Below, piece after piece: positions 19,391 through 35,339 of a DNA stretch of 52,934 bases. The stretch is taken from the NCBI GenBank assembly GCA_945869825.1, contig CAMBQF010000003.1, forward strand, positions 1 to 52,934, given 5' to 3'. This DNA comes from Chitinophaga pinensis. Lineage in GTDB: Bacteria > Bacteroidota > Bacteroidia > CAMBQF01. The notes beneath the pieces were generated by a model. That model saw nothing but the letters and a program-made list of their open reading frames with translations, had not been told where the DNA came from and did not search any database. Each line of letters starts with the position of its first letter. Within the stretch, counting starts at the first letter, position 1. The translations under genes were made by a program, and so were the position numbers.

Positions 19391-20008
19391 GTGGATACTA
19401 AAGAAGAAAATATAATTGCCCAGGTACGACAGATGTACCTGAAATACGGTATAAAGAGTGTTACAATGGATGATGTAGCACGTGAGCTGGGCATATCTAA
19501 AAAAACACTTTACCTATATTTTAAAGATAAGAACGACTTGGTAATGAAATCAATGGAACGCCAGATTGCTATTGACAAAGCCAGCGTTACTTCTATTATA
19601 GATCAACAACTAAACGCTATTGACGAGTTACTTGAAATTGCAGTCAATGTTGCCACTACCTTAAAGTCTATACAACCAGCTGTAATATTCGATATACAAA
19701 AATACTACCCACAGGTATGGGGGCTGCAAACAGAATACAGGCAAAATTTTATTGTACAAACAATTATAGACAATATAAACAAAGGGATAGAACAGGGGTA
19801 TTACCGCCCCAACCTTAACCCCGAAATTATTGCCAAATTTTTTGCGGTTAAGTTGGAAAATATGTTTGACGACAAAGTATTTCCACCGTCAAAATTTGAT
19901 TTGGCAAACGTGTATATGGAATATATACGCTACCATCTTATGGGCATTTGCAACCAAACAGGTGCCGATTATATAGTTAAAAATATTTTCAATATAAAAC
20001 AGTCTTAA
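19391..20008 (+). CDS. TetR/AcrR family regulator
   Basis: HTH YGIKSVTMDDVARELGISKKTLYLYFKDK. Confidence 0.93.
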   Translation: MDTKEENIIAQVRQMYLKYGIKSVTMDDVARELGISKKTLYLYFKDKNDLVMKSMERQIAIDKASVTSIIDQQLNAIDELLEIAVNVATTLKSIQPAVIFDIQKYYPQVWGLQTEYRQNFIVQTIIDNINKGIEQGYYRPNLNPEIIAKFFAVKLENMFDDKVFPPSKFDLANVYMEYIRYHLMGICNQTGADYIVKNIFNIKQS

Positions 20009-20011
20009 TAC

Positions 20012-21355
20012 ATGAAACGCCTAATAATACTAACACCCCTCTTACTTATGCTCTCTTTGGGCCTATGGGCGCAAAATGCACCAAAGCGTGCCTTTACCCT
20101 AAAAGAGGCTATGGACTATGCCGTTACCAACTCGTACACGGCGCAAAACTCATCTATTGATTTAGAAAAAGCCAAACGCCAAATGAATGAGTTGATTGGC
20201 ATTGGAGCCCCGCAAATTGGCGGCTCTGTTAGCTACAACTACAACATTAAACCACCAGTAGCGTTTTTCCCTGCCGCGTTTTTTGGTGGCCCTCCGGGCA
20301 CTTTTCAGGCTGTTACCATATCGCCAAAACAAACCAATACCATTGGGTTATCGCTAAGCCAGCTGTTGTTAGATGGCACTTACTTTATTGGGTTGCAGGC
20401 CGCCAAAAAATTCAAAGAAATATCGGTAGATATTAACCAGAAAGATATAATGGGTATAAAGGCTGATATAGCTACAACCTATTACGCAGTATTAGTTTTA
20501 GAAGAAAACCGTAAGATATTGGCCGAAAGCTTAACCAAGCTAAACGATACCTACTCGCAAACAGAAAAGATATTTAAAGAAGGCTTGATTGAGGAGAACG
20601 ACCTTGACCAACTAAAACTGATTATTTCTACCCTTAAAACAACACAGGTAAGCCTAGATCGCCAAGCAGAACTTGGTAAAAAATTATTAAACTTTCAATT
20701 AGGGATAGAATTAAGCGAACCTGTTACCTTAACAGACAACCTGGATAAGGTACTAACCGATACACCAAATGAAAGCCCATTAACAAACAGCTTTAAGCCT
20801 GAGAGTAACCTTGATTACATCATTTTACGCAAGCAAAGCGCACTTGCCGACCTTAACTACAAACGTGTTATAGCATCGTATACCCCAAGCCTGTCAGGCT
20901 TTGTAAGCTACCAGTGGCAAAACTTTAGTAACGACAACCGTATTTTTGCAGGCAACTCTCAATACTACGGCGTATCTGTTGCCGGCCTAAACCTACGCAT
21001 ACCAATATTCGATGGTTTATCTACTATACAACGCATCAAATCGGCCAAGCTTGATTATAAGAAAACAGAGATTGGCCTAAAGCAACTGGAAGAAGGATTG
21101 AAACTACAATCGGACCAGGCTACAACCAACTACAACAATGCCCTTGACCAGTTTAAGCTGAAAAAAGAAAATCTTGATTTGGCTAAAAAGGTAAAAGAAA
21201 AAGCACTTATAAAATACAGGGAAGGTGTAGGCTCCAGCCTTGAGGTTACTACTACAGAAAACCAATACCTGCAAATACAGGCCGATTATATATCATCATT
21301 ACTAAACCTGTTTAACGCTAAAATAGCCATTAATAAACTGACAAATAACTTTTAA
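20012..21355 (+). CDS. TolC family outer-membrane efflux protein
   Basis: Signal peptide, LRIPIFDG, YREGVGSSLE and operon context. Confidence 0.9.
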   Translation: MKRLIILTPLLLMLSLGLWAQNAPKRAFTLKEAMDYAVTNSYTAQNSSIDLEKAKRQMNELIGIGAPQIGGSVSYNYNIKPPVAFFPAAFFGGPPGTFQAVTISPKQTNTIGLSLSQLLLDGTYFIGLQAAKKFKEISVDINQKDIMGIKADIATTYYAVLVLEENRKILAESLTKLNDTYSQTEKIFKEGLIEENDLDQLKLIISTLKTTQVSLDRQAELGKKLLNFQLGIELSEPVTLTDNLDKVLTDTPNESPLTNSFKPESNLDYIILRKQSALADLNYKRVIASYTPSLSGFVSYQWQNFSNDNRIFAGNSQYYGVSVAGLNLRIPIFDGLSTIQRIKSAKLDYKKTEIGLKQLEEGLKLQSDQATTNYNNALDQFKLKKENLDLAKKVKEKALIKYREGVGSSLEVTTTENQYLQIQADYISSLLNLFNAKIAINKLTNNF

Positions 21356-21392
21356 TAAATAGCACTACTACACACATTACACCATACGTTTT

Positions 21393-22523
21393 ATGAAAAA
21401 ATATAATATTATTCTTGTTGCGCTGGTTTTATTCATAGCTGCCTGCACACCGCCAAAAACAGAACTTGATAAAAAAAGGAAAGAGCTGGCCGATATAAAT
21501 GCCAAAATTGACAACTTAAAGGCCGAAGCTAAGATTATTGAAACCGAAATTGCCAAGCTGGACACCGCTGCTGCAGGCATTTTAAAGAACAAAAATGTAA
21601 AAGTTGAAGAGATAAAACCTAGCGAGTTTGACAACTTTATTGAGGTGCAAGGCATGGTAGACTCTGACGAGAATGTAATGGTAAATACCACCCAACCAGG
21701 TATTATTACCGCCATAAACGTTAAAGAAGGCGATGTGGTGCGTAAAGGCCAGATATTGGCAACTACTGATGCCAATATCATTAACAAATCGATAGACCAG
21801 TTACAAACCAACCTAGACCTTGCAACCATTGCTTACGACAAGCAAAAGCGCCTGTGGGATCAAAAAATTGGTAGCGAGATTCAGTTTCTGAGTGCTAAAA
21901 CACAAAAAGAAAGTTTAGAGAAACAATTAAAAACCCTGCAATCTCAAATTGATTTGACAGTTATCAAATCGCCTATAAACGGTGTTGTTGATGATATTAA
22001 TGTTAAAATTGGTGAAATGGCAAGCCCCGGCTTTACCGGCATACGTGTGGTAAACCTAAGCAACATTAAGGTTGTTGCAAAGGTGTCTGACAACTACATA
22101 TCTAAAGTTAAAAAAGGCCAGTCGGTTGTTGTGCGTTTTCCTGATGCCAACTACCAAATTACCGCCCCTGTTAGCTTTGTAAGCAGCGTAATTGGTACCA
22201 ACCGGTCTTTTAACGTAGAAGTTAAGGTAAATAACAAAGACGCCATGATAAAACCAAATATGGTGGCAAGCCTATTAATATCCGACCAAAAATTATCAAA
22301 CGTATTGGTAGTGCCATCAAACGCAATAGAACACACCGCAACAGGCAATTACCTAATGGTAGTAACAGGCACTAAAGATAAATACACCGCCAGCCGCCGC
22401 AAGGTAGAAATTGGTGTAGAATACAACGGCCGCACTATTGTTACCGAAGGCTTGAAAGAAGGTGAAAAGGTTATAACCTTTGGTTTTCAGGATGTTGTTG
22501 ACGGCCAACCTATTTCTTTTTAA
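21393..22523 (+). CDS. RND efflux periplasmic adaptor (lipoprotein)
   Basis: Lipobox IAAC, VKEGDVVRKGQ and IKSPINGVV. Confidence 0.92.
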   Translation: MKKYNIILVALVLFIAACTPPKTELDKKRKELADINAKIDNLKAEAKIIETEIAKLDTAAAGILKNKNVKVEEIKPSEFDNFIEVQGMVDSDENVMVNTTQPGIITAINVKEGDVVRKGQILATTDANIINKSIDQLQTNLDLATIAYDKQKRLWDQKIGSEIQFLSAKTQKESLEKQLKTLQSQIDLTVIKSPINGVVDDINVKIGEMASPGFTGIRVVNLSNIKVVAKVSDNYISKVKKGQSVVVRFPDANYQITAPVSFVSSVIGTNRSFNVEVKVNNKDAMIKPNMVASLLISDQKLSNVLVVPSNAIEHTATGNYLMVVTGTKDKYTASRRKVEIGVEYNGRTIVTEGLKEGEKVITFGFQDVVDGQPISF

Positions 22524-22581
22524 TTAAACCAATAACACTGCACGGCCCTGTCCGGCATTAAACATATAAAACGCATTTACC

Positions 22582-25500
22582 ATGCAGATGGAACGATTAA
22601 AAGAATTGTTGGTAACCAACTGGGCGATTAATAACCGCACCAGTGTATATGTGCTTACCATCATTATATCTTTAGCGGGCTTGTTTGTTTTCAACAGCAT
22701 TCCTAAAGAGCAGTTTCCTGATATTGTTGTACCAACCATATCAGTAGTTACCATATACCCCGGCGCTACACCCGAGGATATTGAAAACCTTATTACCAAA
22801 CCAATTGAGAAGCAATTAAAATCGGTATCGGGTATTAAAAAAGTAACCAGTAATTCTATTCAGGACGTATCAATTATTACCGCCGAGTTTAAAACCGACC
22901 AAAAGGTAATTGATTGTAAAAACAAGGTTTCAGACGCGGTTGACAAAGCCAAGAACGACCTGCCGACTGACTTAGATAACGACCCGCAGGTGCAGGAATT
23001 CGACTTTTCTGAATTCCCTATCATGAACATCAACATATCAGGCGACCTTCCCTTAGACAGGCTTAAGAAATATGCCGAAGATTTGGAAGATAAAATTGAG
23101 GGTATGCCAGAAATTACCCGTGTAGATATTGTAGGTGGCCTTGACCGTGAAATACAGATTAACGTTGACCTTTACAAAATGCAGGCCGCTGGTATTACCT
23201 TTGGCGATATTGAAGGTGCCGTAGCCCGCGAAAACGTAAACATATCAGGTGGCGACATTCGTGTTGACGACCAACGCCGCAGCTTACGTGTAACAGGCCA
23301 GTTTAAAAACCCTAAAGACATTGAAAATATTGTAGTTCGCTCTTTTCAGGGCACTACGGTTTTCTTAAGGGATATTGCTACCGTTACCGATGGGTATAAA
23401 GAAAAACAAGACTTTGCCCGCCTTGACCAAAAAACGGTTATCAGCATGAACGTTATTAAACGGTCGGGCGAAAACTTAATTGCAGCATCAGACAAAATTC
23501 AGGATATTATACAGGAGTTTAAGGCAACTAAATTCCCCAAAGGGTTAGAGGTTACTATTACCGGAGACCAGTCTGACAACACCCGAGTATCTATTGCCGA
23601 CCTTATCAATACCATTGTTATTGGCTTTACGCTGGTGCTTATAGTACTGATGTTTTTTATGGGCCTTAGCAACGCGTTTTTTGTTGCGTTAGCGGTGCCT
23701 CTTTCATCACTTATCGCATTCCTTTTCTTACCCGGTTTAGATTATACGCTAAACGTAATTGTACTATTCTCTTTCTTACTGGCGTTGGGTATTATTGTGG
23801 ATGATGCCATTGTGGTTATTGAAAACACCCACCGTATATACAACAAGTACGATTTTGATGTAGTACAGGCTGCCAAGTATGCCGCAGGCGAGGTATTTAT
23901 ACCCGTACTGGCAGGTACGCTCACTACTATTGCCCCCTTCTTCCCGCTGCTGTTTTGGCCGGGTATAGCGGGCGAGTTTATGGGTAAACTGCCTGTTACA
24001 CTTATTATAACCCTTGGCGCATCGTTATTTGTGGCCTTTATAATGAACCCTGTGTTTGCTGTGTCGTTTATGAAAAAAGGCGACCATGCAGAACTTCCTC
24101 CTATCCGCAGCCTGTTCCGCAACCTGATTATATTTGGTGTGTTGGCAATATTTGGCTTTTTAAGCGGTGGCTATGGCTTTGGCAACTTTATGTTGTTTAT
24201 GATTGTGATGGCCGTATTCTACCACTTTGTACTTACCCGCGCAATCAAATCATTCCAGGAAAAAGTATGGCCTAAATTTATTGCAGGCTACCGCAAGGTG
24301 CTTGTAGTATTTGTAAAAGGTTACAGGCCTATATTTGTTGTTGGTATTACATCGGTAGCTACGCTTGTTACTATTTTTGCCTACTTCAGCTCTGAGCCAA
24401 GATTTGAATTTTTCCCTAGCGGCGACCCTAACTTTGCTTACGTATACATACAGGCTCCACTGGGTACCGACGCTGAAGTAACAGACTCTATTACCCGCAT
24501 TGCTGAGAAGAGGGTTTACGAAGTATTGGGCCAGAAAAACCCCAATGTAAAATCTGTTATTGCCAACGTTGGCCTAAACGCCGGCGACCCGCAAAACCCA
24601 GACCGCGTGCCTACCCCTTATAAAGGTAAAATTACGGTAGCTTTTGTTAAATTCTCTGATCGTGCCGCTGGTTTTAACACTAGCGAGGCACTGAATAACA
24701 TCCGCGAGAAGTTTAAGAAAGAGCCTATACAGGGTGTTTCTATATCGGTAGATAAAGAGGCTAATGGCCCACCGGTAGGTAAGCCTGTAAACATGGAAAT
24801 TAGTGGCGACGAGTTTCCTGTGCTGTTAGACCTGCAAGAGAAAGTGTTTAAAGCTGTTGCCAAGGCCAAAATTACCGGCATGGAAGAGTTTAAAAGCGAC
24901 TTGCAGCTGAACAAGCCTGAGATAATTATTGATATAGACCAGGAAAAAGCCCAACGCGAAGGTGTAAGCAAAGCCCAGATTGGTATAGACCTGCGCACGG
25001 CCTTGTTTGGCAAAGAAATATCAAAATACAAAGATGCTAATGATGACGCGCCTATACAACTGCGTCTTACTGAAGATTACCGCAAAAAAGTAGAACAGCT
25101 TACCAACCTGCAAATATCTTTTATGGATATGGCAAGTGGCCGTTTTAAGCAATTGCCCTTATCATCAGTAGTTACGGTGCGCTACGCGCAGTCGTATAAC
25201 GGTATCAACCGCAAAAACCAAAAGCGTGTGGTATCCTTATCATCAAACGTTGAAAACCCTGATTTAACAAGCAACATTGTTGCCCAGCTAAACAGCGTTA
25301 TAAGCACTATTGATGTACCTGAAGGGTATGAAATAAAAATGACCGGTGCGCAGGAAGATCAGAAAGAAACATCAGACTTTTTAGGGGTAGCGTTTTTAGC
25401 TGCTATTTTGTTAATGTTCTTCATCCTGGTAACACAGTTTAACTCTGTTGTTAAGCCAATGCTTATCTTCTCAACCATCTTCTTTAGTTTGATGGGTGTG

Positions 25501-25950
25501 TTCTTAGGCTTTATCATATTCGACTTTAGCTTCTCTATTGTAATGACGGGTGTGGGTATCTTTGCCCTATCGGGTATCGTTATCCGTAACGGTATATTAC
25601 TAATAGAATTTATTGATGAGCTGCGCCAGCGCGGCGAAACCATTCACGAAGCGGTGGTTGATGGCGGCGCAACCCGTTTAACACCTGTATTTTTAACAGC
25701 AGTATCGGCCATACTTGGTTTAATACCGTTAGCTATAGGTTTAAATATTGATTTTGCCGGGTTATTTACCCACTTCGACCCGCATTTCCACCTTGGTGGC
25801 GATAACGTTGCCTTCTGGGGCCCGTTAGCCTGGACAATGATATTTGGTTTAGTTATAGCAACCTTCTTAACCCTGTTAGTAGTGCCTACCATGTACATGA
25901 TGGCCTACAAAACCAAGCACAAAGTGTTGGGCTGGTTTAAGAAAAAATAG
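22582..25950 (+). CDS. RND efflux permease (AcrB/D/F family)
   Basis: YPGATPEDIE, GIIVDDAIVVIEN and TRLTPVFLT. Confidence 0.95.
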   Translation: MQMERLKELLVTNWAINNRTSVYVLTIIISLAGLFVFNSIPKEQFPDIVVPTISVVTIYPGATPEDIENLITKPIEKQLKSVSGIKKVTSNSIQDVSIITAEFKTDQKVIDCKNKVSDAVDKAKNDLPTDLDNDPQVQEFDFSEFPIMNINISGDLPLDRLKKYAEDLEDKIEGMPEITRVDIVGGLDREIQINVDLYKMQAAGITFGDIEGAVARENVNISGGDIRVDDQRRSLRVTGQFKNPKDIENIVVRSFQGTTVFLRDIATVTDGYKEKQDFARLDQKTVISMNVIKRSGENLIAASDKIQDIIQEFKATKFPKGLEVTITGDQSDNTRVSIADLINTIVIGFTLVLIVLMFFMGLSNAFFVALAVPLSSLIAFLFLPGLDYTLNVIVLFSFLLALGIIVDDAIVVIENTHRIYNKYDFDVVQAAKYAAGEVFIPVLAGTLTTIAPFFPLLFWPGIAGEFMGKLPVTLIITLGASLFVAFIMNPVFAVSFMKKGDHAELPPIRSLFRNLIIFGVLAIFGFLSGGYGFGNFMLFMIVMAVFYHFVLTRAIKSFQEKVWPKFIAGYRKVLVVFVKGYRPIFVVGITSVATLVTIFAYFSSEPRFEFFPSGDPNFAYVYIQAPLGTDAEVTDSITRIAEKRVYEVLGQKNPNVKSVIANVGLNAGDPQNPDRVPTPYKGKITVAFVKFSDRAAGFNTSEALNNIREKFKKEPIQGVSISVDKEANGPPVGKPVNMEISGDEFPVLLDLQEKVFKAVAKAKITGMEEFKSDLQLNKPEIIIDIDQEKAQREGVSKAQIGIDLRTALFGKEISKYKDANDDAPIQLRLTEDYRKKVEQLTNLQISFMDMASGRFKQLPLSSVVTVRYAQSYNGINRKNQKRVVSLSSNVENPDLTSNIVAQLNSVISTIDVPEGYEIKMTGAQEDQKETSDFLGVAFLAAILLMFFILVTQFNSVVKPMLIFSTIFFSLMGVFLGFIIFDFSFSIVMTGVGIFALSGIVIRNGILLIEFIDELRQRGETIHEAVVDGGATRLTPVFLTAVSAILGLIPLAIGLNIDFAGLFTHFDPHFHLGGDNVAFWGPLAWTMIFGLVIATFLTLLVVPTMYMMAYKTKHKVLGWFKKK

Positions 25951-25982
25951 TCCGGTTTTCATTTTAATAGATTTAGTAAAGC

Positions 25983-26019
25983 AAAAAAGCGCCGCATAGC
26001 AATATGCGGCGCTTTTTTT
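25983..26019. terminator. Bidirectional intrinsic terminator between the two convergent efflux operons
   Basis: AAAAAAGCGCCGCATA-GCAA-TATGCGGCGCTTTTTT. Confidence 0.85.
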
Positions 26020-26037
26020 ATGCTGCTAAGCATATAT

Positions 26038-26511
26038 TTAGTTTACAAAAATCTTGTCTTCAGAAACACCATGGCAACTATTACAGGCGCCATTAGTTAT
26101 GGCACTACTCATATACTGTACATCGCCGCTGGTGCCAGTAATGCCTGGGTACAAACCGCTGCCAAAGTCTATATCTTCTGTAGTGTAAAAATTGCCTTTA
26201 GCATCAACCTCTATGGTGTATTTAAGTGTGCCAGTGCCATCGGGCCCTGTATATAGTTTAACTGTACCGTTTGGTTGAACGTTGGTAAACGCAGCATTGT
26301 AAACAGTGCCCGCCGCATTAAACCAACCTTCGCCCGCGCCGCCACTTTTATGGCAGTTCATACAATTTTGTCCCATGTTGTGGCTGTCGTCATCGCCGTA
26401 GCGAGATATGTTAGTTTCGTTTTCCTCGTTTTCCTTTTCGCAGCCCTGTATGGCTACCATGCCGCCAAATAAGGCAGTGAGCAATCCCATTGTAATTAAC
26501 TTTTTTTTCAT
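26038..26511 (-). CDS. Lipoprotein with two CxxCH motifs (putative di-heme c-type cytochrome)
   Basis: Lipobox IQGC followed by acidic EKENEENE; CMNCH and CNSCH flank a beta-rich domain. Confidence 0.75.
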   Translation of the reverse strand: MKKKLITMGLLTALFGGMVAIQGCEKENEENETNISRYGDDDSHNMGQNCMNCHKSGGAGEGWFNAAGTVYNAAFTNVQPNGTVKLYTGPDGTGTLKYTIEVDAKGNFYTTEDIDFGSGLYPGITGTSGDVQYMSSAITNGACNSCHGVSEDKIFVN

Positions 26512-26555
26512 GGTTTCTATTTTAAACTTGATAATTGCTTGTAGTAAAAAATTAT

Positions 26556-27686
26556 TTATTCCGATTTATTTTTTAAACTCATAAGTAAGGCATAAGCCCC
26601 CTTTATAGCAAAGCGGTAGTTATTTATGTCTTTATTTTTATCCGCAGGCACAATTTCAGTAAAGCCTCGCTCGCTGCTGCCGGGCAATACCTCAAACAAT
26701 TCAAATACCCCGGCTGATTTTTGTATAAATACGTAATGTTTGTTTTCAAATTCAACAATGGCATCATCTGGCAAGGCAGGCGCATTACTACTTTTAACCT
26801 CAACATTTGCATTCATATACATACCCGGTATCAGGCCCTTATCATACTCTTCAAAATGGCAATGCACCTCTACGCTACGCTCTACCGAAAGGCTTTTACC
26901 AATAAGGATAACCTCGCAGGTATATTTTTTATCGGCATTGTTAGTATAGGCATATACCTTTTGGCCAATGGTAAACTTGTTAAGGTCTTTTTCAAACACC
27001 GTTAGGTTAAGGTGTATGTCGGCAGGGTTTACAAGCTCAAACAACACATCGGCAGGGTTTACATATTTGCCAATGTTTACGTTTACCTTCGATACAAAAC
27101 CATCAATAGGTGAATATACGTTTATGCCACGCGATAGGTTATTCTCATTTAGGTTATCAGGGTTGATACCAATTAGCTTAAGCTTTTCGTACAACGATTT
27201 CATCAATATCTTCTGCGATTTATAGTCCGCTTCAGCCTGCTGAAAAACCTTGTCGCTGCTGGCTTTAGTGGCGTTTAAATCTTTCTGGCGAAAATACTCC
27301 CCTTCTATATATTTAAATTTAGCCTGTGCGTTCAGGTAATCCTGTTGAAGTTGAATATACTGCTGGTCTTCCATTACGGCAATAACATCGCCTTTGCCCA
27401 CATGCATACCCGGCAGCAACTTGGTGCTCTTTAAATACCCGCCCAACGGCACACTTACCGATACCATATTTTGGGGCGGCACATCAATAATACCATTTAC
27501 TTTTAGTATCGATGATAGGCTCTTCATTTCGGCTTTGCCCACTTGCACGTCTGCGTTTTTACTTTGCGCATCGGTAAGGGTAACTGTTGTGCCGCTTTCT
27601 TCTTTAGCAGATGTTTCATCGGCCTGCTTTGCTCCGCCGCAGGCGGTTAGCAATGATATGGCAATAAAAATTATATACTTGTTCAT
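26556..27686 (-). CDS. Heavy-metal RND periplasmic adaptor (CzcB/CusB-like lipoprotein)
   Basis: Lipobox LTAC, IDVPPQN, YIQLQQDYL and SPIDGFV. Confidence 0.9.
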   Translation of the reverse strand: MNKYIIFIAISLLTACGGAKQADETSAKEESGTTVTLTDAQSKNADVQVGKAEMKSLSSILKVNGIIDVPPQNMVSVSVPLGGYLKSTKLLPGMHVGKGDVIAVMEDQQYIQLQQDYLNAQAKFKYIEGEYFRQKDLNATKASSDKVFQQAEADYKSQKILMKSLYEKLKLIGINPDNLNENNLSRGINVYSPIDGFVSKVNVNIGKYVNPADVLFELVNPADIHLNLTVFEKDLNKFTIGQKVYAYTNNADKKYTCEVILIGKSLSVERSVEVHCHFEEYDKGLIPGMYMNANVEVKSSNAPALPDDAIVEFENKHYVFIQKSAGVFELFEVLPGSSERGFTEIVPADKNKDINNYRFAIKGAYALLMSLKNKSE

Positions 27687-27690
27687 GTTG

Positions 27691-30600
27691 TTACTTGTTT
27701 GTTAGTGCGTTTAAATCAATCACACTAAGGTTTAGCGCCTTTACGGCGTCTAAATAATCACTTTGGGTGGCAATGGCCTGGTTAATCAGCATTACCCAGT
27801 CCAGATAATTAATATCGCCACCTTGTAACTGAGTGCTGGCTGTTTTAATAATGGTATCAGCATAGCCGAGGGCGCTGCCCTCATAATAATCTACCGCCTG
27901 CTTGTTCTTTGTGTAATTGGCCAATGCCTGGCTGTAGGCTGTTTGCAAAGAGTTTACCCCCGACAGGTAGTTGTATTGCGCAATTTGCTTGTCTATTTTC
28001 AATGCGCCAATTTTTGCTTTTTGTGCGCCAAAAAACAAGGGAATACCCAAGCCAAATTGCGCCGACTGAAAACGGTAAGTAGTAGTGTAGGCTTTATTAT
28101 CGGCACCTATACCTCGTATACTCATGTTGCTGTAGCCCAAGCTAATATCAGGCAACAGGCCTGCCTTTTCTGTTTTTAGGCGGTAAAGGCTTACCTGCTC
28201 TTGTTGTTTTAAGTAGCCAGCCAGCGGGTGCTGCATAAGGGTGCTGCTATCAACCACCATAGGCAATTCAATTTTAAATTGCGGTTGGTAGGGTATATAA
28301 TCCACGCCGGTATTAAGCAGATAATTAAGTTGCTTTTGAAGCACAACATAGTCTTGCTGCAACTGGGTAAGTTGCAGGTTTACTTTGCCTTTAAGGTTAT
28401 CGGCAGTGGTCTTTTCCAAGATGTTGCTTTCGCCCTTGTTAAAGCGTTGCGTACTTTTTATTAAAAACTCAGTAAAAAGGCTATCGGCACGTTGCAAAAG
28501 TTTCTTCTTCTGGTCTAAAAAGAGCAACTCATAAAACACCGCAGACACCTGCTTCTTCAAATCGTTCTGCTTAATGGCTACTGCCAGTTGCCCGCCTTTA
28601 TACTCCTCATTAAGCAACTGCTTTTGGGTGCTGTAAACAGTAGGAAATTTTATGGTTTGAGAAATACTAAAACGGGTATCGTTATACACACTGTTTATTT
28701 GCCCATACTCGCCTATAACAGCGGTAGATTGTAGGTTCCACGCGGTGCCTTTTAACTTGCCCAGATAGTCGGTTTGCAGGTTTTGTGCACGCAGGCTTAC
28801 GTTGTTTTTCAAAGCGGTATCAATAGCCGCTTGCAGCGTTAAAGTTTGCTGCCCATAGCTTGCTGTAGAGCCAAAACTCATAAAGCCGATAACGGTTAGC
28901 CCTGCTACAATATGCTTTTTAACTTTAAAACCACTCTCAAACAAAATGTACAGTATGGGTAATACAAAAAGGGTAAGCAAGGTGGCCAGTAACAGCCCGC
29001 CAATAACTACCGTAGCTAACGGACGCTGCACCTCTGCACCTGCCCCGTTGCTAACGGCCATAGGCAAAAAGCCCAGCGATGCCACAAAGGCTGTCATAAG
29101 CACTGGCCTAAGCCTAACTTTGGTGCCTTGAGTAACAATGCGCTTAACATCCTTTAGCCCTTCGGCACGCAGGCGGTTAAACTCGGCAATAAGTACAATG
29201 CCATTTAGCACCGCCACGCCAAACAAGGCAATAAAGCCCACCCCGGCTGATATACTAAACGGTAAGCCCCTTGCTGCAAGCGCAAATATGCCACCAACAG
29301 CAGACAGCGGAATAGCCGTGTAAATAAGTAAGCCCTGTTTAATAGAGCCAAATGCAAAATACAGCATAAGAAATATGAGTAGTAACGATATGGGAACGGC
29401 AATGCTTAAGCGCTTTTTAGCCGCATTCAGGTTTTCAAACGCGCCACCATAATCTATACGGTAGCCACGTGGGAGTTTGATGTCGGAAGTAACCTTGGCC
29501 TGCAACTCAGTTACAATACTTTGTACATCGCGCCCACGAACGTTAAAGCCAACGATTATGCGCCTTTTAGACCCCTCGCGTTGAATTTGGTTAGGGCCGT
29601 TTTTGCTTACAATACTTGCCAACTGGTATAAGGGCACTTGTGTGCCTTGCCTGGTAGGTATCAGCAGGTTTTCTACATCAGTAATGTTACTGCGTTTTTC
29701 AACTTGTAGCCGCACTACCATATCAAACCTTTTTTCACCCTCAAACACCAAACCCGCACTTTGTCCAGCAAAGGCGGTGTTTACCACCTTGTTTACATCG
29801 CTAATATTAAGGCCGTACTGTGCCATTGCACTACGATTGTAGCTAATTATAATTTGCGGCATACCGCCAACGGGTTCAACAAATATATCTTTAGCACCAT
29901 CAATAGTACCAGCTGCTTCGCCCAGCTTTTGGGCAAATAAGGCAAGGCTATCCATATTGTCGCCAAATATTTTACAAACTACATCCTGGCGCGCCCCCGT
30001 CATCAACTCGTTAAAACGCATTTGCACGGGGTATTGAAAGCCTGTGGTTAAACCGGGCACAGCTTCCAGTTCTTTGCTCATTTTATCGGCCAGTTCATTA
30101 AATGTTTGGGCTGATGTCCACTCGCTTTTGTCTTTCAGTATTATCATCATGTCTGATGCTTCAATAGGCATAGGGTCTGTGGGAATTTCGCCGCTGCCTG
30201 TTTTGGTTACCACTTTTTGTACTTCAGGAAATTTTTCGAGCAGAATATGCGATGCCTTTTGCGTAGCCTCAATATTTGCTGTAAGGTTGCTACCGGTAAG
30301 CAGGCGGCATTCAACGGCAAAATCGCCTTCTTCTAAACTAGGTATAAACTCGCCGCCTAAAAAGGTTAGCGTTACTACCGCACCAATAAATAAAGCAATA
30401 GTAACAGCTAAAATGGTTTTAGGGAAATTTAATGCCCTTGTAAGTGTTTTTTGGTATAATCGCCCTATGCCCTCCATGATCCTGTCGGATATTGTTTTTT
30501 TATGGCTGATTTTTTTGCTTAAAAACAGCGCGCTAAAGGCAGGTATATAGGTTAGCGAGAGGATGAAAGCACCCAACAGTGCAAAGGCTACTGTTTGAGC

Positions 30601-32040
30601 CATGGGCTTAAACATTTTACCCTCTATGCCCTGCAATGTAAATATGGGCAGGTATACTATTAAAATTATTATTTGTCCAAAAACAGCGCTATTCATCATC
30701 CGCCCCGCCGATTGGTTAACCTCGGTATCCATATCGCCCTGGGTTAGCTTGCTTACCTGACTGAATTTTTTGCTATGGGTAAGCGTGTGCATTACAGCCT
30801 CTACAATAATTACCGCCCCATCTACAATAAGACCAAAATCTAACGCGCCAAGGCTCATCAGGTTGCCGCTAACGCCAAACAGGTTCATCATAATTATGGC
30901 AAACAACATAGCCAGCGGTATTACCGATGCCACCAATAGCCCTGCCCTAAAATTGCCTAAGAAAAGCACCAGCACAAAAATCACAATCAACGCACCTTCC
31001 AGTAGGTTTTTCTCTACAGTGCCGATGGCATTGTTTACCATTTTGGTTCGGTCTAAAAAAGGTTCTATTACCACCCCTTCAGGCAGGTCTTTCTTAATTA
31101 ATTCAATCCGCTCTTTTACATCTTTAATAACGCTGCTACTGTTGCCGCTCTTTACCATCATCACCACACCGCCGGCTACCTCGCCCATGTCATTATAGCA
31201 CAATGCGCCATAGCGTATGGCATTACCAAAGCGCACATCAGCCACATCGCGAATAAATAGCGGGGTGCCATTTTCTGTGCTTTTTACCTGTATGCTTTCA
31301 ATATCGGCAAGGGTGCCCACTAAGCCTTCGGTACGTATGTACTGCACAGTAGGGCCTTTTTCAATGTAGGCTCCGCCGGTATTCTGGTTGTTATTCTCCA
31401 GCGCGCTAAAAATATCAGCAATGGTTACCCCATACGATTTTAGCTTATCGGCATTTACAGCAATTTCGTACTGCTTAAGCTTGCCGCCAAAGCTGCTTAC
31501 ATCGGCCACACCGGCTACGCCTAGTAGTTGGCGACGCACCGTCCAATCTTGTATAGTGCGCAACGCTGTGGCATCATACTTATTCTCATATCCCTCTTTG
31601 GGCCTTACAACGTATTGATAAATCTCGCCAAGGCCGGTAGTTACCGGGCCCATTTCGGGCAAGTCTACCCCCGGGGGCATAAGCGGTTGCACTTTTACAA
31701 GGCGTTCGCTAACCTGCTGGCGCGCCCAGTAAACATCTACATCATCAGTAAAAACCAACGTAACCACCGATAAACCAAAACGCGAAAAGCTACGCATTTC
31801 CATTAAGCCCGGTATGTTGGCGTTAGCCTGCTCTATTGGGTAAGTAATAAGCCGCTCAATATCGGTAGCGCCCATAGCGGGAGCTACAGTAATAACCTGC
31901 ACCTGATTGTTGGTAATATCGGGCACGGCATCTATGGGTAAACGCGTTACCTCGTAACTGCCATAGCCAATAAGGCCAATAACAAACAGGGCAATTATCA
32001 GCTTATTTTTAACTGAAAATTGAATTATCCGGTTTAGCAT
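27691..32040 (-). CDS. CusA/CzcA heavy-metal RND transporter with C-terminal fused TolC-like domain
   Basis: LPIDAVPDITNNQVQ, GLGEIYQY, LGALDFGLIVDGAV and RLRPVLMTA, plus an extension of about 400 aa that looks like an outer-membrane factor. Confidence 0.93.
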   Translation of the reverse strand: MLNRIIQFSVKNKLIIALFVIGLIGYGSYEVTRLPIDAVPDITNNQVQVITVAPAMGATDIERLITYPIEQANANIPGLMEMRSFSRFGLSVVTLVFTDDVDVYWARQQVSERLVKVQPLMPPGVDLPEMGPVTTGLGEIYQYVVRPKEGYENKYDATALRTIQDWTVRRQLLGVAGVADVSSFGGKLKQYEIAVNADKLKSYGVTIADIFSALENNNQNTGGAYIEKGPTVQYIRTEGLVGTLADIESIQVKSTENGTPLFIRDVADVRFGNAIRYGALCYNDMGEVAGGVVMMVKSGNSSSVIKDVKERIELIKKDLPEGVVIEPFLDRTKMVNNAIGTVEKNLLEGALIVIFVLVLFLGNFRAGLLVASVIPLAMLFAIIMMNLFGVSGNLMSLGALDFGLIVDGAVIIVEAVMHTLTHSKKFSQVSKLTQGDMDTEVNQSAGRMMNSAVFGQIIILIVYLPIFTLQGIEGKMFKPMAQTVAFALLGAFILSLTYIPAFSALFLSKKISHKKTISDRIMEGIGRLYQKTLTRALNFPKTILAVTIALFIGAVVTLTFLGGEFIPSLEEGDFAVECRLLTGSNLTANIEATQKASHILLEKFPEVQKVVTKTGSGEIPTDPMPIEASDMMIILKDKSEWTSAQTFNELADKMSKELEAVPGLTTGFQYPVQMRFNELMTGARQDVVCKIFGDNMDSLALFAQKLGEAAGTIDGAKDIFVEPVGGMPQIIISYNRSAMAQYGLNISDVNKVVNTAFAGQSAGLVFEGEKRFDMVVRLQVEKRSNITDVENLLIPTRQGTQVPLYQLASIVSKNGPNQIQREGSKRRIIVGFNVRGRDVQSIVTELQAKVTSDIKLPRGYRIDYGGAFENLNAAKKRLSIAVPISLLLIFLMLYFAFGSIKQGLLIYTAIPLSAVGGIFALAARGLPFSISAGVGFIALFGVAVLNGIVLIAEFNRLRAEGLKDVKRIVTQGTKVRLRPVLMTAFVASLGFLPMAVSNGAGAEVQRPLATVVIGGLLLATLLTLFVLPILYILFESGFKVKKHIVAGLTVIGFMSFGSTASYGQQTLTLQAAIDTALKNNVSLRAQNLQTDYLGKLKGTAWNLQSTAVIGEYGQINSVYNDTRFSISQTIKFPTVYSTQKQLLNEEYKGGQLAVAIKQNDLKKQVSAVFYELLFLDQKKKLLQRADSLFTEFLIKSTQRFNKGESNILEKTTADNLKGKVNLQLTQLQQDYVVLQKQLNYLLNTGVDYIPYQPQFKIELPMVVDSSTLMQHPLAGYLKQQEQVSLYRLKTEKAGLLPDISLGYSNMSIRGIGADNKAYTTTYRFQSAQFGLGIPLFFGAQKAKIGALKIDKQIAQYNYLSGVNSLQTAYSQALANYTKNKQAVDYYEGSALGYADTIIKTASTQLQGGDINYLDWVMLINQAIATQSDYLDAVKALNLSVIDLNALTNK

Positions 32041-32043
32041 AGC

Positions 32044-32532
32044 TTAGTCCTCAACATCTGTTTGATCAATAGCCCCGGCAGCGCTTGTTGCGCCTCCTGC
32101 TATTTCGGTATGGCGAATTTGCCCGCCATAATAGCCCGCTCTTGCCATTGCTGCAAAAGCCAAAACTGTTAAAATCGTACAGGCTATAAACAGGCTTTTG
32201 CGCACAGGCAATTTGCGTATGCTAAAAAACAAGTAAATAGCACATAGCAAGCCTGAGGCCAATGTTAATATTAGTGCAGGCTTTGCAGCATCTTCGTGGG
32301 TATGGATAGAATCTTTAGTAACGCCCGGAATTTTTTTGGCGGTATGTTCTGCGCTCTCGCCGGTGTTGTTAACTACCATGGCGCTCACTGCCAATACTAT
32401 TACAAGGCCGGCAGCAAAATCTTTAAACTTGGGGTTGTTTTTTACTATGGCCCAAACCATAATTGCGCTTGTTATTAACGTGCCCACAATGGGGAAGTGT
32501 GTTAACAGCAAATGAATGTGTGTAGCGTTCAT
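32044..32532 (-). CDS. DUF2231-like 4-TM membrane protein with conserved histidines
   Basis: HIHLLLTHFPIVG, TGESAE, IHTHEDAA and GGQIRHTEI. Start refined to the ATG at 32532. Confidence 0.7.
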   Translation of the reverse strand: MNATHIHLLLTHFPIVGTLITSAIMVWAIVKNNPKFKDFAAGLVIVLAVSAMVVNNTGESAEHTAKKIPGVTKDSIHTHEDAAKPALILTLASGLLCAIYLFFSIRKLPVRKSLFIACTILTVLAFAAMARAGYYGGQIRHTEIAGGATSAAGAIDQTDVED

Positions 32533-32622
32533 TGCTAAATAATTTAATACTGTTAAAATGATAGTTTCCGCGTAAACAGAAAGGCAACCTGTGCAAGGCA
32601 AAACCTAAATCAGAAAAAATTA

Positions 32623-33015
32623 TTAGCAGCTTTTGGGCGGTTGCCAAATGGATGAAAGGTATTGCGAAGACACAAGGGTTTCATCAATTAAAATATGGCT
32701 TATGTACGAATGTTCGATTGGGTTGATGCTAAACTTATGGTTGACCGCCGGAAGGGCGTTCATAACCGTAGCAATAGAATGGTCGTGGGTTTTAAAGGGG
32801 AGTTGCTGGTCGCGTTTGTAATCAGCATCCTGCTCATCGCCACTAAAATAATGCTCGTTGATATAGGCCAAAAAATCAAGCGATTTATCGGTTTGCTTAT
32901 GCTCGAAAAAGTGCTGCACCAACACCGGAGCCTTGAGCAACTGGTGCATTGGCGTAGCCGAAAATAGCACGACACCCAAAAACAATATGGCAATTATCCT
33001 TTTCAACAATAGCAA
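32623..33015 (-). CDS. Conserved hypothetical protein leading the metal-efflux operon
   Basis: QLLKAPVLVQHFFEH, EHY, QLPFK and C-terminal SSIWQPPK, a type often seen upstream of Bacteroidota cusA/czcA. Confidence 0.75.
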   Translation of the reverse strand: MLLLKRIIAILFLGVVLFSATPMHQLLKAPVLVQHFFEHKQTDKSLDFLAYINEHYFSGDEQDADYKRDQQLPFKTHDHSIATVMNALPAVNHKFSINPIEHSYISHILIDETLVSSQYLSSIWQPPKSC

Positions 33016-33079
33016 ATTTAACTTATTAAACCCGCAAAGGCAATTTCCGCAAAAAATTCAGAATGATTTTAAATAGACC

Positions 33080-33115
33080 AAAAAAAAAGCCCGACTAAAA
33101 ATCGGGCTTTTTTTT
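33080..33115. terminator. Intrinsic terminator of recQ
   Basis: A-run AAAGCCCGA-CTAAAAA-TCGGGCTTT T-run. Confidence 0.8.
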
Positions 33116-33128
33116 ATTTGTTGAGGCT

Positions 33129-35339
33129 CTAGTTACCTAAGTCGCTAATAAATTTAAGTCGAACCAGGCGCAACTCTTCGCTGCTGTAAGTTTCTTCGCC
33201 AAACTCTTCAACAGCATCTTCAATGCTGTCAGTTTCAGCCGTGCGGAAGAAATCAAAAATCTCCTGTTGCTCTTCTTCGCCCAACAACTCGTTCAGGTAG
33301 TAGTTAAGGTCTAGCTTAGTGCCAGACGATACGATACTTTCCATCTCGGTAATAAGTTCGTTAGGTGTTACCCCTTTCGCCTCGCATATATCTTCAAGCG
33401 GCAACTTACGGTCAACGCTTTGAATGATGTACACTTTAAGGCCCGACTTGTTTACCACCGATTTTACAACCATATCCTGTGGGCGGTGGATATCATTATC
33501 CTCCACATACTTTTTGATAAGTTCGACAAACGGTTTGCCGAACTTTTGGGCTTTACCTGCGCCAACACCGCTAATGTTTTTCATTTCCTCTAGCGTTACC
33601 GGATACTGAATAGTCATATCCTCTAACGATGGGTCTTGAAACACAACGTATGGTGGCACATTATTTTGCTTAGCAATTTTTTTGCGTAAGTCTTTTAGTA
33701 AGGTAAAAAGGGCATCGTCAGAAGCACCGCCGCCACCTTGGGCTGCTGCGCCGTCTACGCCTTCTTCGTCCTTATCTGTTTCATCAAAATTCTGGTCCTT
33801 TGTCAACATAATTGAATAAGGTTTTTCCAAGTATTGTTTACCTTTTTCTGTTACTTTTAATATTCCGTAGTTCTCAATTTCCTTTGATAAAAAGCCCAAC
33901 ACAGCAGCCTGGCGGGCAACTGCCATCCAGTGGCGTTCTCCCTCTTCAACTCCTTTGCCAAAGATTTCAAGCTCGTGGTGCTTATACTGTTTTATAGCGG
34001 TATTGGTATTACCTACCAGTACATTGGCCACGTGCCTGTCTTTAAACTTCTCTTTAACGGCTAAAACGGCTTCAATTATATCACAAATTGCGTCTTCGCC
34101 CTCAAAAGGTGTTTTGGGGTTACGGCAGTTATCGCACATGCCGTTACAACCCTCTTCATCAAATTCTTCGCCAAAGTAATGCAAAACTATCTTACGTCTG
34201 CAATTTGAACTTTCAGCATAGGCTATAGTTTCTGATATCAATTGCATCCCAATCTCTTGCTCAGCAACGGGTTTGCCCTTTAAAAACTTTTCTAATTTTT
34301 GTATATCATCATAGCTGTAAAAGGTAATACAGTTGCCTTCGCCCCCGTCGCGGCCGGCTCTTCCGGTCTCCTGATAGTAACCTTCCAGGCTTTTGGGTAT
34401 CTCGTGATGGATAACAAAACGAACATCGGGCTTGTCTATCCCCATACCAAAAGCTATAGTGGCTACTATAACCTGGATATCTTCCATAAGGAACTTATCC
34501 TGTGTTTCGGGCCTTGTTTTGGCATCAAGACCCGCATGGTATGGCAGGGCTTTAATACCATTGGCCTGAAGCAAAGCTGCCAATTCTTCAACCTTCTTCC
34601 TGCTCAAACAATAGATAATACCACTTTTGTTTGGATTTTGTTTAATGTACTTAACTATTTCTTTATCAGCATTTACTTTTGGGCGTACCTCGTAGTAAAG
34701 GTTGCTGCGGTTAAATGATGATTTGAATACCCTGGCGGTTTGCATGCCCAGGTTTTTCAAAATATCCTGCTGTACTTTTGGGGTTGCTGTTGCGGTAAGG
34801 GCAATAATAGGCACCTGGCCAATAGCCTCTATAATAGAGCGCAGACGGCGGTACTCCGGGCGAAAATCGTGCCCCCACTCAGAAATACAGTGTGCCTCAT
34901 CAATTGCAAAGAATGATATTTTAATTTCGCGGAAAAAGGCTACGTTTTCTTCTTTAGTGAGCGACTCGGGCGCTACATACAACATTTTGGTGCGCCCGGC
35001 AGTAATATCGGCCTTTACCTTTTCAATTTCTTTTTTGGTAAGCGATGAGTTTAGGAAATGGGCCACTCCATCGTCAGACCCGTAGTTGCGTATTGCATCT
35101 ACCTGGTTTTTCATCAATGCAATAAGTGGAGATACAATAATTGCCGTACCCTCGCTAATTAAAGCCGGCAACTGGTAGCATAGGCTTTTACCACCGCCCG
35201 TAGGCATTATAACAAAGGTATCATTACCTGCTAAAATACTGTTTATTACTTCCTCCTGTTCTCCTTTAAACTTGTTAAACCCAAAATACTGTTGCAAATG
35301 GGTGGCTAAAGGCACCTCAATTTCGTTGTCAATTAACAT
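33129..35339 (-). CDS. recQ: ATP-dependent DNA helicase RecQ
   Basis: MPTGGGKSLCYQLPA, DEAHCISEWGHDFRP, QETGRAGRDG, Zn-binding CDNC and an HRDC domain. Confidence 0.97.
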   Translation of the reverse strand: MLIDNEIEVPLATHLQQYFGFNKFKGEQEEVINSILAGNDTFVIMPTGGGKSLCYQLPALISEGTAIIVSPLIALMKNQVDAIRNYGSDDGVAHFLNSSLTKKEIEKVKADITAGRTKMLYVAPESLTKEENVAFFREIKISFFAIDEAHCISEWGHDFRPEYRRLRSIIEAIGQVPIIALTATATPKVQQDILKNLGMQTARVFKSSFNRSNLYYEVRPKVNADKEIVKYIKQNPNKSGIIYCLSRKKVEELAALLQANGIKALPYHAGLDAKTRPETQDKFLMEDIQVIVATIAFGMGIDKPDVRFVIHHEIPKSLEGYYQETGRAGRDGGEGNCITFYSYDDIQKLEKFLKGKPVAEQEIGMQLISETIAYAESSNCRRKIVLHYFGEEFDEEGCNGMCDNCRNPKTPFEGEDAICDIIEAVLAVKEKFKDRHVANVLVGNTNTAIKQYKHHELEIFGKGVEEGERHWMAVARQAAVLGFLSKEIENYGILKVTEKGKQYLEKPYSIMLTKDQNFDETDKDEEGVDGAAAQGGGGASDDALFTLLKDLRKKIAKQNNVPPYVVFQDPSLEDMTIQYPVTLEEMKNISGVGAGKAQKFGKPFVELIKKYVEDNDIHRPQDMVVKSVVNKSGLKVYIIQSVDRKLPLEDICEAKGVTPNELITEMESIVSSGTKLDLNYYLNELLGEEEQQEIFDFFRTAETDSIEDAVEEFGEETYSSEELRLVRLKFISDLGN

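Follow-up and report, generated by a model that had tools for sequence, protein, structure and literature searches.

A czc-type operon of Chitinophaga pinensis with a predicted di-haem cytochrome lipoprotein as a likely optional accessory

Introduction

Why should an operon for heavy-metal export end in a gene for a cytochrome? This question is raised by five genes at positions 26038-33015 of a contig assigned to Chitinophaga pinensis (CAMBQF010000003.1 of assembly GCA_945869825.1), of which positions 1 to 52,934 were analysed; we call this whole stretch of 52,934 nucleotides the window. An earlier note on this DNA saw in the five genes a cus-type pump of the resistance-nodulation-division (RND) kind with a built-in redox module, made of a di-haem lipoprotein and a histidine-rich membrane protein that would change or sense the oxidation state of the metal. 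Our computational analysis leads to a different verdict, in which the czc operon is an ordinary one and the redox accessory, from a new family, is optional. The pump is ordinary; the cytochrome family is what deserves attention, since it is uncurated, has a predicted beta-sandwich between its two haems, and occurs in tandem forms of up to five modules.

Results and discussion

The pump belongs to the CzcA type

The operon lies on the minus strand and consists of five co-oriented open reading frames (33015-32623, 32532-32044, 32040-27691, 27686-26556, and 26511-26038) separated, in this order, by gaps of 90, 3, 4, and 44 nt. The third (27691..32040) encodes a heavy-metal RND permease of 1449 residues, onto which an outer-membrane efflux (TolC-like) domain, PF02321, is fused. 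The permease scored 1159 bits on TIGR00914 (CusA/CzcA; cut-off 701.45). The fourth (26556..27686) encodes a periplasmic adaptor, a CzcB-like membrane fusion protein of 376 residues that matched PF16576 and TIGR01730 (116.7 bits, cut-off 94.9) and stayed under the cut-off of TIGR00999.

The fourth transmembrane segment (TM4) of the permease reads DFGLIVD, with aspartates D401 and D407. According to PMC2891726, two TM4 aspartates (D402 and D408 of CzcA) mark divalent transporters and one marks CusA. The top match of the permease among solved structures was ZneA (4k0e, E 1e-196), with CusA behind at E 3e-180, and three methionine positions of CusA align with E, A, and E in this permease. These methionines are presumably the Met-triad binding site of CusA. 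Because of the two TM4 aspartates, ZneA as best match, and the lack of a Met triad, we place the pump, by its sequence, in the CzcA type and the divalent class. The cus-type label given to it earlier does not hold, and an identity as CusA, a copper pump, was rejected on the TM4 aspartates and the E/A/E positions. The operon is predicted to export divalent metal ions. Pumps of this class have been described for Zn, Co, and Cd. Zn and Cd keep one oxidation state, which argues against a redox-coupled change of the substrate. At two related loci, czcA is broken into two or three open reading frames (L001:4472-8301 and L048:11021-14957), by frameshift or assembly error.

The last gene encodes a predicted cytochrome of a new family

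The last gene (26038..26511, minus strand) encodes an unannotated protein of 157 residues. It has an N-terminal signal peptide with the predicted lipidation residue Cys24, which is followed by an acidic stretch (C24-EKENEENE), and there are two haem-attachment motifs, C50-x-x-C53-H54 and C143-x-x-C146-H147, as had been seen earlier. A search with this protein gave 851 homologues among 931 candidates. We aligned 119 of the 120 listed homologues (P0003 was omitted) and found C24, both CxxCH motifs, H44, and M134 to be invariant (119/119), so the lack of motif conservation that the earlier note would have taken as a refutation is not seen. The genome also has two matches over cut-off to PF01578 (haem-c maturation) on contig C162. 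In all, each feature of a c-type cytochrome lipoprotein that could be tested here is present in the predicted protein. We infer that it holds two c haems with His/His and His/Met ligation, with H44 and M134 as candidate sixth ligands, and that it acts as an electron carrier. Beyond C24, the haem motifs, and H44, the family keeps no further conserved His or Cys; a metal-chaperone role was rejected, there being zero spare conserved ligands. In one homologue (P0230) Met stands for the His preceding the first CxxCH.

Scans of Pfam and NCBIfam gave nothing over cut-off (best PF13442 at 21.4 vs 27 bits and NF045774 at 21.5 vs 118), and the matches in the Atlas were unnamed clusters, mainly from Bacteroidota (2,490 members), with Myxococcota and Acidobacteriota in addition. 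The family profile found 1,700 representatives (50% identity) at E<=0.001, and 141 of the 150 best distant representatives have at least two C-x2-4-CH motifs. The family is new, in that no curated model exists for it.

The structural model (mean pLDDT 83.8; residues 141-150 of low confidence) predicts a transthyretin-like beta-sandwich at about residues 64-157, between the haem motifs. The small cytochromes c known so far are helical. The top fold matches for residues 64-157 were 3e8v_A (Z 6.8, root-mean-square deviation 2.3, 76 aligned) and 1qmu_A (Z 6.3), values under 8 that may reflect merely a common arrangement, and the haem-binding ends lie outside the matched span. A distant homologue matched PF13620. 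Foldseek gave no match at E<=0.001, and the top VIA rows were haem-free beta-sandwiches (Z<=6.8), by which haem families are not excluded; a sequence search of solved structures with the family profile gave nothing below E 0.01. A structural check for haem ligands, which had been proposed earlier, therefore has a mixed outcome: the two candidate ligands are invariant, and the model is of low confidence at residues 141-150 with fold matches to haem-free proteins.

The protein had also been likened to surface-exported lipoproteins. According to PMC5080379, the optimal surface-export signal of Bacteroidota is C-X-K-(D/E)2. The residues from Cys24 onward (C-E-K-E-N-E-E) fit this in part, and K occupies +3 in 108/119 homologues. 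The charge varies among homologues; the 10 residues after the Cys are net acidic in 8 of the 18 RND-linked homologues scored and net basic in some.

Three related lipoproteins (P0121, P0122, and P0123) have 5, 4, and 2 tandem di-haem modules, with up to 10 haem motifs in 702 residues, and are possible multihaem wires of an undescribed fold. Two or three copies of the cytochrome gene stand side by side at L030, L047/L085, L075, and L105.

The cytochrome is likely an optional neighbour of the pump

We studied the neighbourhood of the cytochrome in two sets of genomes. The close-relative set (the best 80 of 436 GTDB relatives) leans toward near kin and holds many short contigs, and a class sample of 401 genomes was taken to offset this bias. 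Among the 80 loci, a co-oriented heavy-metal RND system lies within 10 kb in 17, with the cytochrome directly after the adaptor gene in 16, and a DUF2231-like gene lies within 10 kb in 12. The 401 genomes contain the cytochrome in 52, czcA/cusA in 328, a DUF2231-like gene in 109, and the leader encoded by the first gene of the operon (see below) in 141; the czcA and DUF2231-like tallies include two genomes flagged unpublished (G094 and G179), which no other claim uses. In 7 genomes, from 5 of 23 families, the cytochrome gene lies next to czcA (G000, which is the window's own, and G059, G137, G103, G047, G358, and G066). A crude chance model for this adjacency (24 families) gave P about 3e-9, a value that overstates the case, since kin are not independent. 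These data support the earlier idea of a link to metal-efflux loci, in that homologues adjoin metal-export genes far above chance and in several lineages. Genome-level co-occurrence of the cytochrome with czcA (48/52 vs 280/349) and with the DUF2231-like gene (23/52 vs 86/349) was weak and confounded by kinship and was not used.

By contrast, the same counts do not support a built-in module. Because 321 of the 328 czcA genomes and 45 of the 52 cytochrome genomes lack the pair, the cytochrome is likely an optional companion and not a subunit of the pump. If a membrane protein with haem b and a cytochrome at the surface were integral to the pump and altered or sensed the oxidation state of its substrate, this would be in keeping with the tight co-oriented packing, with the position of the cytochrome right after the adaptor in the loci counted above, and with the conserved histidines of the membrane protein. 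We nevertheless consider such an obligatory arrangement very improbable, since nearly all czcA genomes lack an adjacent cytochrome of this family, the closest CzcA relatives mostly have none, the pump is of the divalent type, the histidines of the membrane protein lie on one face, and the export signal is matched in part.

The commonest conserved home of the cytochrome is beside a DUF5777 beta-barrel gene (22/52 genomes, from five families with 12 from one), and DUF5777 loci usually add YceI or PSCyt1-type haem lipoproteins. In 2/52 genomes it stands with thioredoxin, ApbE, and DUF3570, a cluster that PMC8238504 describes as an extracytosolic redox system. A natural fusion joins the cytochrome module to PSCyt1 domains (P0171). 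A literature search that covered few subscription papers found no paper on the cytochrome family, none on DUF5777 and, in titles and the starts of abstracts, none on a czc operon with such a cytochrome; for DUF2231 it listed one paper, about a cysteine database.

Other haem lipoproteins can occupy the same place. Among 20 czc operons that lack the cytochrome and were picked for a leader beside czcA, 3 have another small haem-c lipoprotein, of the PSCyt1 type, in a flanking slot: after czcB (L226), between leader and czcA (L227), or before the leader (L235). The rate expected is about 0.7% per locus, as taken from one background genome. At another cytochrome-less operon (L238:196-2171), genes named by sequence likeness as DUF5777-like, YceI-like, and Rieske-like lie three genes past czcB.

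The association with metal exporters is shallow and varied

For the cytochrome we used a quick tree of 130 distinct sequences with 21 rows labelled RND-linked; L096, which has an unrelated adaptor gene several genes off and no RND permease, was counted as unlinked. The RND label needs 12 changes on this tree. Holding the 21 RND-linked cytochromes as one clade was rejected by an approximately unbiased (AU) test on 61 rows (27 metal-linked rows plus every third other, with three odd rows dropped), at a p-AU of 0.0005 for a group set by context after the larger tree had been seen. A single origin of the czc link was rejected on this value. The permease tree (FastTree, 65 sequences) has 16 linked and 49 unlinked members, the latter being the top TIGR00914 scorers plus 20 picked for a leader beside czcA. 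Here the linkage label changes 7 times, with 6 of the changes forced by starred branches, and the pump of the window groups with 18 unlinked and 5 other linked relatives. The trees cannot separate gain from loss, and on both of them the associations between cytochrome and metal genes are shallow.

Gene orders vary as well. The cytochrome may follow czcB, lie before czcA with a leader or regulator on its other side (L048 and L098), or stand before or after VIT1. In a genome of the same genus, VIT1 replaces czcAB while the flanking genes are unchanged (L004/L084); L004 has no RND genes and begins with the leader and the DUF2231-like gene, after which come VIT1 and the cytochrome. The window's own genome has a YceI match on contig C109 and a VIT1 match on contig C111.

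The VIT1 loci bear on a different explanation, in which Fe2+ (or Mn2+) is the ion exported at this locus and is oxidised by the cytochrome, whose electron would travel via the DUF2231-like protein to an oxidase or the quinone pool. Ferroportin, which works with a ferroxidase, offers an analogy. VIT1 or rubrerythrin-like-VIT1 is directly adjacent to the cytochrome in 10 of the 80 best loci, the swap at L004 keeps the leader, the DUF2231-like gene, and the cytochrome, CDF genes occur at L037 and L057, and His/Met ligation would allow a high potential. However, the TM4 motif of CzcA is identical in pumps with and without an adjoining cytochrome, the cytochrome has no conserved metal residues beyond its haem ligands, and the VIT1 link falls to 4/53 regions in the 401-genome sample. 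We therefore regard export-coupled oxidation as unlikely. We give equally little credence to its boldest form, in which CzcCBA, VIT1, and CDF exporters would recruit a di-haem cytochrome of new fold that oxidises Fe2+ or Mn2+ and hands the electron on via DUF2231, and in which the 130-residue module, repeated up to fivefold in other lineages, would build multihaem wires. If true, this would be the bacterial equivalent of the ferroportin-ferroxidase pair.

The DUF2231-like protein has a candidate periplasmic site

The second gene (32044..32532, minus strand) encodes a DUF2231-like protein of 162 residues that is predicted to span the inner membrane four times. It scored just under the cut-off of PF09990 (DUF2231; 25.5 vs 26.4 bits), which orthologues from the same genus pass narrowly. 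The earlier description of a four-segment membrane protein with several histidines before the pump gene is borne out by four hydrophobic segments and five conserved histidines. Across 118 aligned rows H5, H7, H12, H79, and H141 are 97-100% conserved, and E59, E62, E66, E80, R140, and E143 are conserved as well. Loops 1-2 and 3-4 are rich in K and R, and the opposite face is acidic and bears all five histidines. Because the positive-inside rule puts K/R-rich loops in the cytoplasm, the conserved His and Glu residues presumably face the periplasm, where they would form a site suited to a metal or to a single haem b. The cytoplasmic face has no conserved His, and a transmembrane cytochrome b with two haems was rejected for that reason. 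Of the haem-b protein suggested earlier, the form with a single haem is compatible with these data and the form with two is not.

The model of this protein is a four-helix bundle with generic fold matches (best Z 12.9, to a designed protein), and a sequence search of solved structures gave nothing below 0.7. A complex prediction with the cytochrome and three haems scored 0.00, which speaks neither for nor against binding. Among the PF09990 loci of 201 genomes, we also inspected the 30 best. A CxxCH domain is fused behind DUF2231 in 6 of the 30 (PSCyt1 was confirmed in 3/3 scanned), and a Rieske domain is fused to DUF2231 in 2 scanned loci. These fusions make a redox role for the DUF2231 domain plausible.

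The first gene encodes a probable regulatory leader peptide

The first gene (32623..33015, minus strand), whose likely role was overlooked earlier, probably encodes a metal-responsive regulatory leader peptide of the CutF-like kind, 127-130 residues long. The start listed for it, TTG 33015, falls within a TAnnTTTG element, so the start is probably TTG 33006 (127 residues). The element belongs to a promoter-like sequence, TTG-N20-TAAATTTG (33013..33043), that lies 6 nt before this probable start; we take TAnnTTTG, as part of a -33/-7 element, to be the Bacteroidota promoter consensus. On the minus strand of 26000-33200 TAnnTTTG has two sites, one at 33020-33013 and the other inside czcA, and it is present in the 60-nt start region of 25/29 homologous leaders, generally 4-6 nt upstream of the start codon. 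This arrangement points to a single transcript with a very short 5' leader and a start at 33006. In most of L164-L193, the -7 element stands 4-6 nt before a start codon that is often GTG or TTG, and near-leaderless translation is suggested for the leader family.

The predicted peptide has a hydrophobic N-terminus, as read from the sequence, and ends in IWQPPKSC. W[QHN]PP plus 1-7 residues ends 105 of 106 aligned leader rows, and H35, E38, H39, H55, D63, D65, and D69 are conserved. No DUF2946 match and no Pfam match above chance level was found in the 106 rows. With CutF-like genes, as filtered in PMC9973294, the leader shares a length under 150 residues, PP in the last 15, an export segment, and a co-oriented gene within 1000 nt (here after a 90-nt gap). 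Across the 29 top leader loci whose end is readable, the leader is followed by czcA in 22 and by the DUF2231-like gene in 4. At L170, L176, and L188 the leader precedes genes for a monohaem lipoprotein, a secreted protein, and an unknown lipoprotein. Folding predicts an mRNA stem (32533..32632, minus strand) between the stop region of the leader and the start region of the next gene. Pairing of this kind, with at least 5 expected pairs, was predicted at 12/13 junctions vs 38/323 controls, and it holds whichever gene comes after the leader.

A working model and what weighs against it

The reading that we favour, by a little more than an even chance, is that a metal-sensing leader controls the translation of a czc operon in which the cytochrome and the DUF2231-like protein serve as optional redox accessories of the envelope, induced together with the pump. 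All five genes would be on one transcript, because a promoter-like element precedes the first gene and none precedes the cytochrome gene. By analogy with CutF, the exported leader would bind periplasmic metal through its His and Asp residues, and a ribosome pause at WQPP would melt the stem over the next start and allow downstream translation. The CzcA-TolC permease and CzcB would then export divalent ions by proton antiport, as is known for the family. The lipoprotein would mature to two low-spin haems, His/His and His/Met, and would carry electrons one at a time between species of the envelope and a partner in the membrane. The likeliest candidate for this partner is the DUF2231-like protein, whose His/Glu site on the presumed periplasmic side would bind a metal or one haem b. 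Our best guess for the species acted on is a reduced redox-active metal (Fe2+ or Mn2+) or the resulting radicals. The cytochrome thus likely serves an envelope redox response to metal overload and would be dispensable for pumping.

Several observations weigh against this model. The stop/start hairpin was predicted at only 12 of 24 additional loci, with a miscalled start at two of the other 12; a longer fold of the window locus lacked the pairing, and the gain from simulated stalling was nil (0.64 to 0.65). In the 401-genome sample, the cytochrome and the DUF2231-like gene, whose co-occurrence the earlier note had proposed to score, are neighbours in one genus only: of 23 genomes with both genes, 4 have them within 10 kb of each other, and these 4 belong to the genus of the window. 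The redox fusions of DUF2231 belong to other subfamilies. In addition, 77 of the 130 distinct cytochrome homologues have no recurrent context within 6.5 kb, where many contigs are short, and L055, L061, and L064 are close sisters of RND-linked copies with the pump absent. An adaptor 3'-end remnant is seen just upstream of the cytochrome at L061:1257-1502, where the cytochrome seems to have outlasted the pump.

These last points, together with the DUF5777 cassette as the commonest home, the shallow associations on both trees, and the position of the cytochrome as the last gene of the operon, would also be expected of a passenger, that is, a mobile envelope gene with a non-metal job that lands in accessory clusters, czc among them, and is read through. 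This alternative deserves a hearing, yet we find it rather doubtful, given that the cytochrome has arrived repeatedly and separately next to czcAB, VIT1, and the leader, in gene orders that differ and that include a place just before czcA, and given that other haem-c lipoproteins replace the cytochrome in the same slots.

The repeated arrival of the cytochrome near metal exporters, with the DUF5777 barrel, and in the ApbE/DUF3570 cluster offers three genetic handles on a presumed envelope electron carrier and a first hint at the function of DUF2231. The leader is a testable candidate metal sensor of the His/Asp and WQPP type for czc operons. A survey of RAPP/RGPP leaders reports few before copper-related genes in the Bacteroidota phylum (PMC12992588).

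Operon boundaries and neighbouring genes

The earlier description of five co-oriented, tightly packed genes between two terminators agrees with the reading-frame coordinates and with folding. A hairpin at 33081..33115 (minus strand), the predicted terminator of an upstream recQ-like gene, bounds the 5' end of the operon; its folded segment (33070-33125) had a z of -5.40. The downstream hairpin (25980..26024), with T runs on both strands, had a z of -4.45 (folded segment 25975-26030). In each case 0/200 shuffles were equally stable. A terminator consensus scan detected the upstream hairpin and not the downstream one, and folding detected both.

A second RND operon (19391-25950, plus strand) converges on the czc operon and shares the terminator at 25980-26024. 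Its genes, named as read from the sequence, encode a TetR-like regulator, a TolC-like protein, an adaptor, and a permease of 1122 residues with DDAIVV in TM4. An Rfam scan of 25000-34000 gave 0 matches, and 27 sigma-70 promoter sites were predicted against 23.1 +/- 4.8 in shuffled sequence, a comparison that is uninformative for Bacteroidota. The window's own genome (2.98 Mb in 189 contigs) has single copies of the cytochrome, DUF2231-like, and leader genes.

Comparison with known systems

The operon is closest to CzcCBA and ZneCAB of Cupriavidus metallidurans, with which it has in common the TIGR00914 permease with both TM4 aspartates, the adaptor, and the outer-membrane factor. It differs in that the outer-membrane factor is fused to the permease, which is common in the sampled class, and in the added DUF2231-like and cytochrome genes. 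CzcCBA also has a small His-bearing gene, czcI, in front, which is the nearest named Atlas cluster for the leader, although we take this merely as a lead. Unlike the leader, CzcI has no C-terminal proline motif according to PMC9973294.

The CusCFBA system of Escherichia coli has the architecture of heavy-metal efflux RND pumps in common with this operon. CusA lacks the first TM4 aspartate, however, and has methionines where the pump of the window has E, A, and E. The cus operon includes CusF, a small periplasmic accessory protein. In contrast to CusF, the accessory protein of this operon bears haem motifs, and none of its conserved residues is left over to bind a metal.

The same cytochrome family is found inside the DUF5777 barrel/YceI/PSCyt1 cassette of Bacteroidota, to which the 22 genomes and the PSCyt1 fusion described above belong. 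By comparison, the window's own genome has a monohaem lipoprotein and a DUF5777 barrel at C1:36945-38271 without the di-haem cytochrome. In fold, residues 64-157 of the cytochrome are most like transthyretin-like and carboxypeptidase-regulatory-like domains, for which the top matches are not haem proteins.

For the leader, the comparison is with CutF of Rhodobacter capsulatus and CruR of Bordetella pertussis, leaders of the DUF2946 type, of which CruR is the other studied one beside CutF (PMC9426467). CutF-like genes have been reported upstream of CusA/CzcA and in Bacteroidota (PMC9973294). All three leaders have fewer than 150 residues, an export segment, PP in the last 15 residues, a short intergenic region, and a stem-loop over the next start, which for the leader of the window is a prediction. 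The leader of the window differs from CutF and CruR in having a His/Asp motif rather than CxxC/CxxxC, W[QHN]PP rather than RAPP, and an mRNA that is probably near-leaderless.

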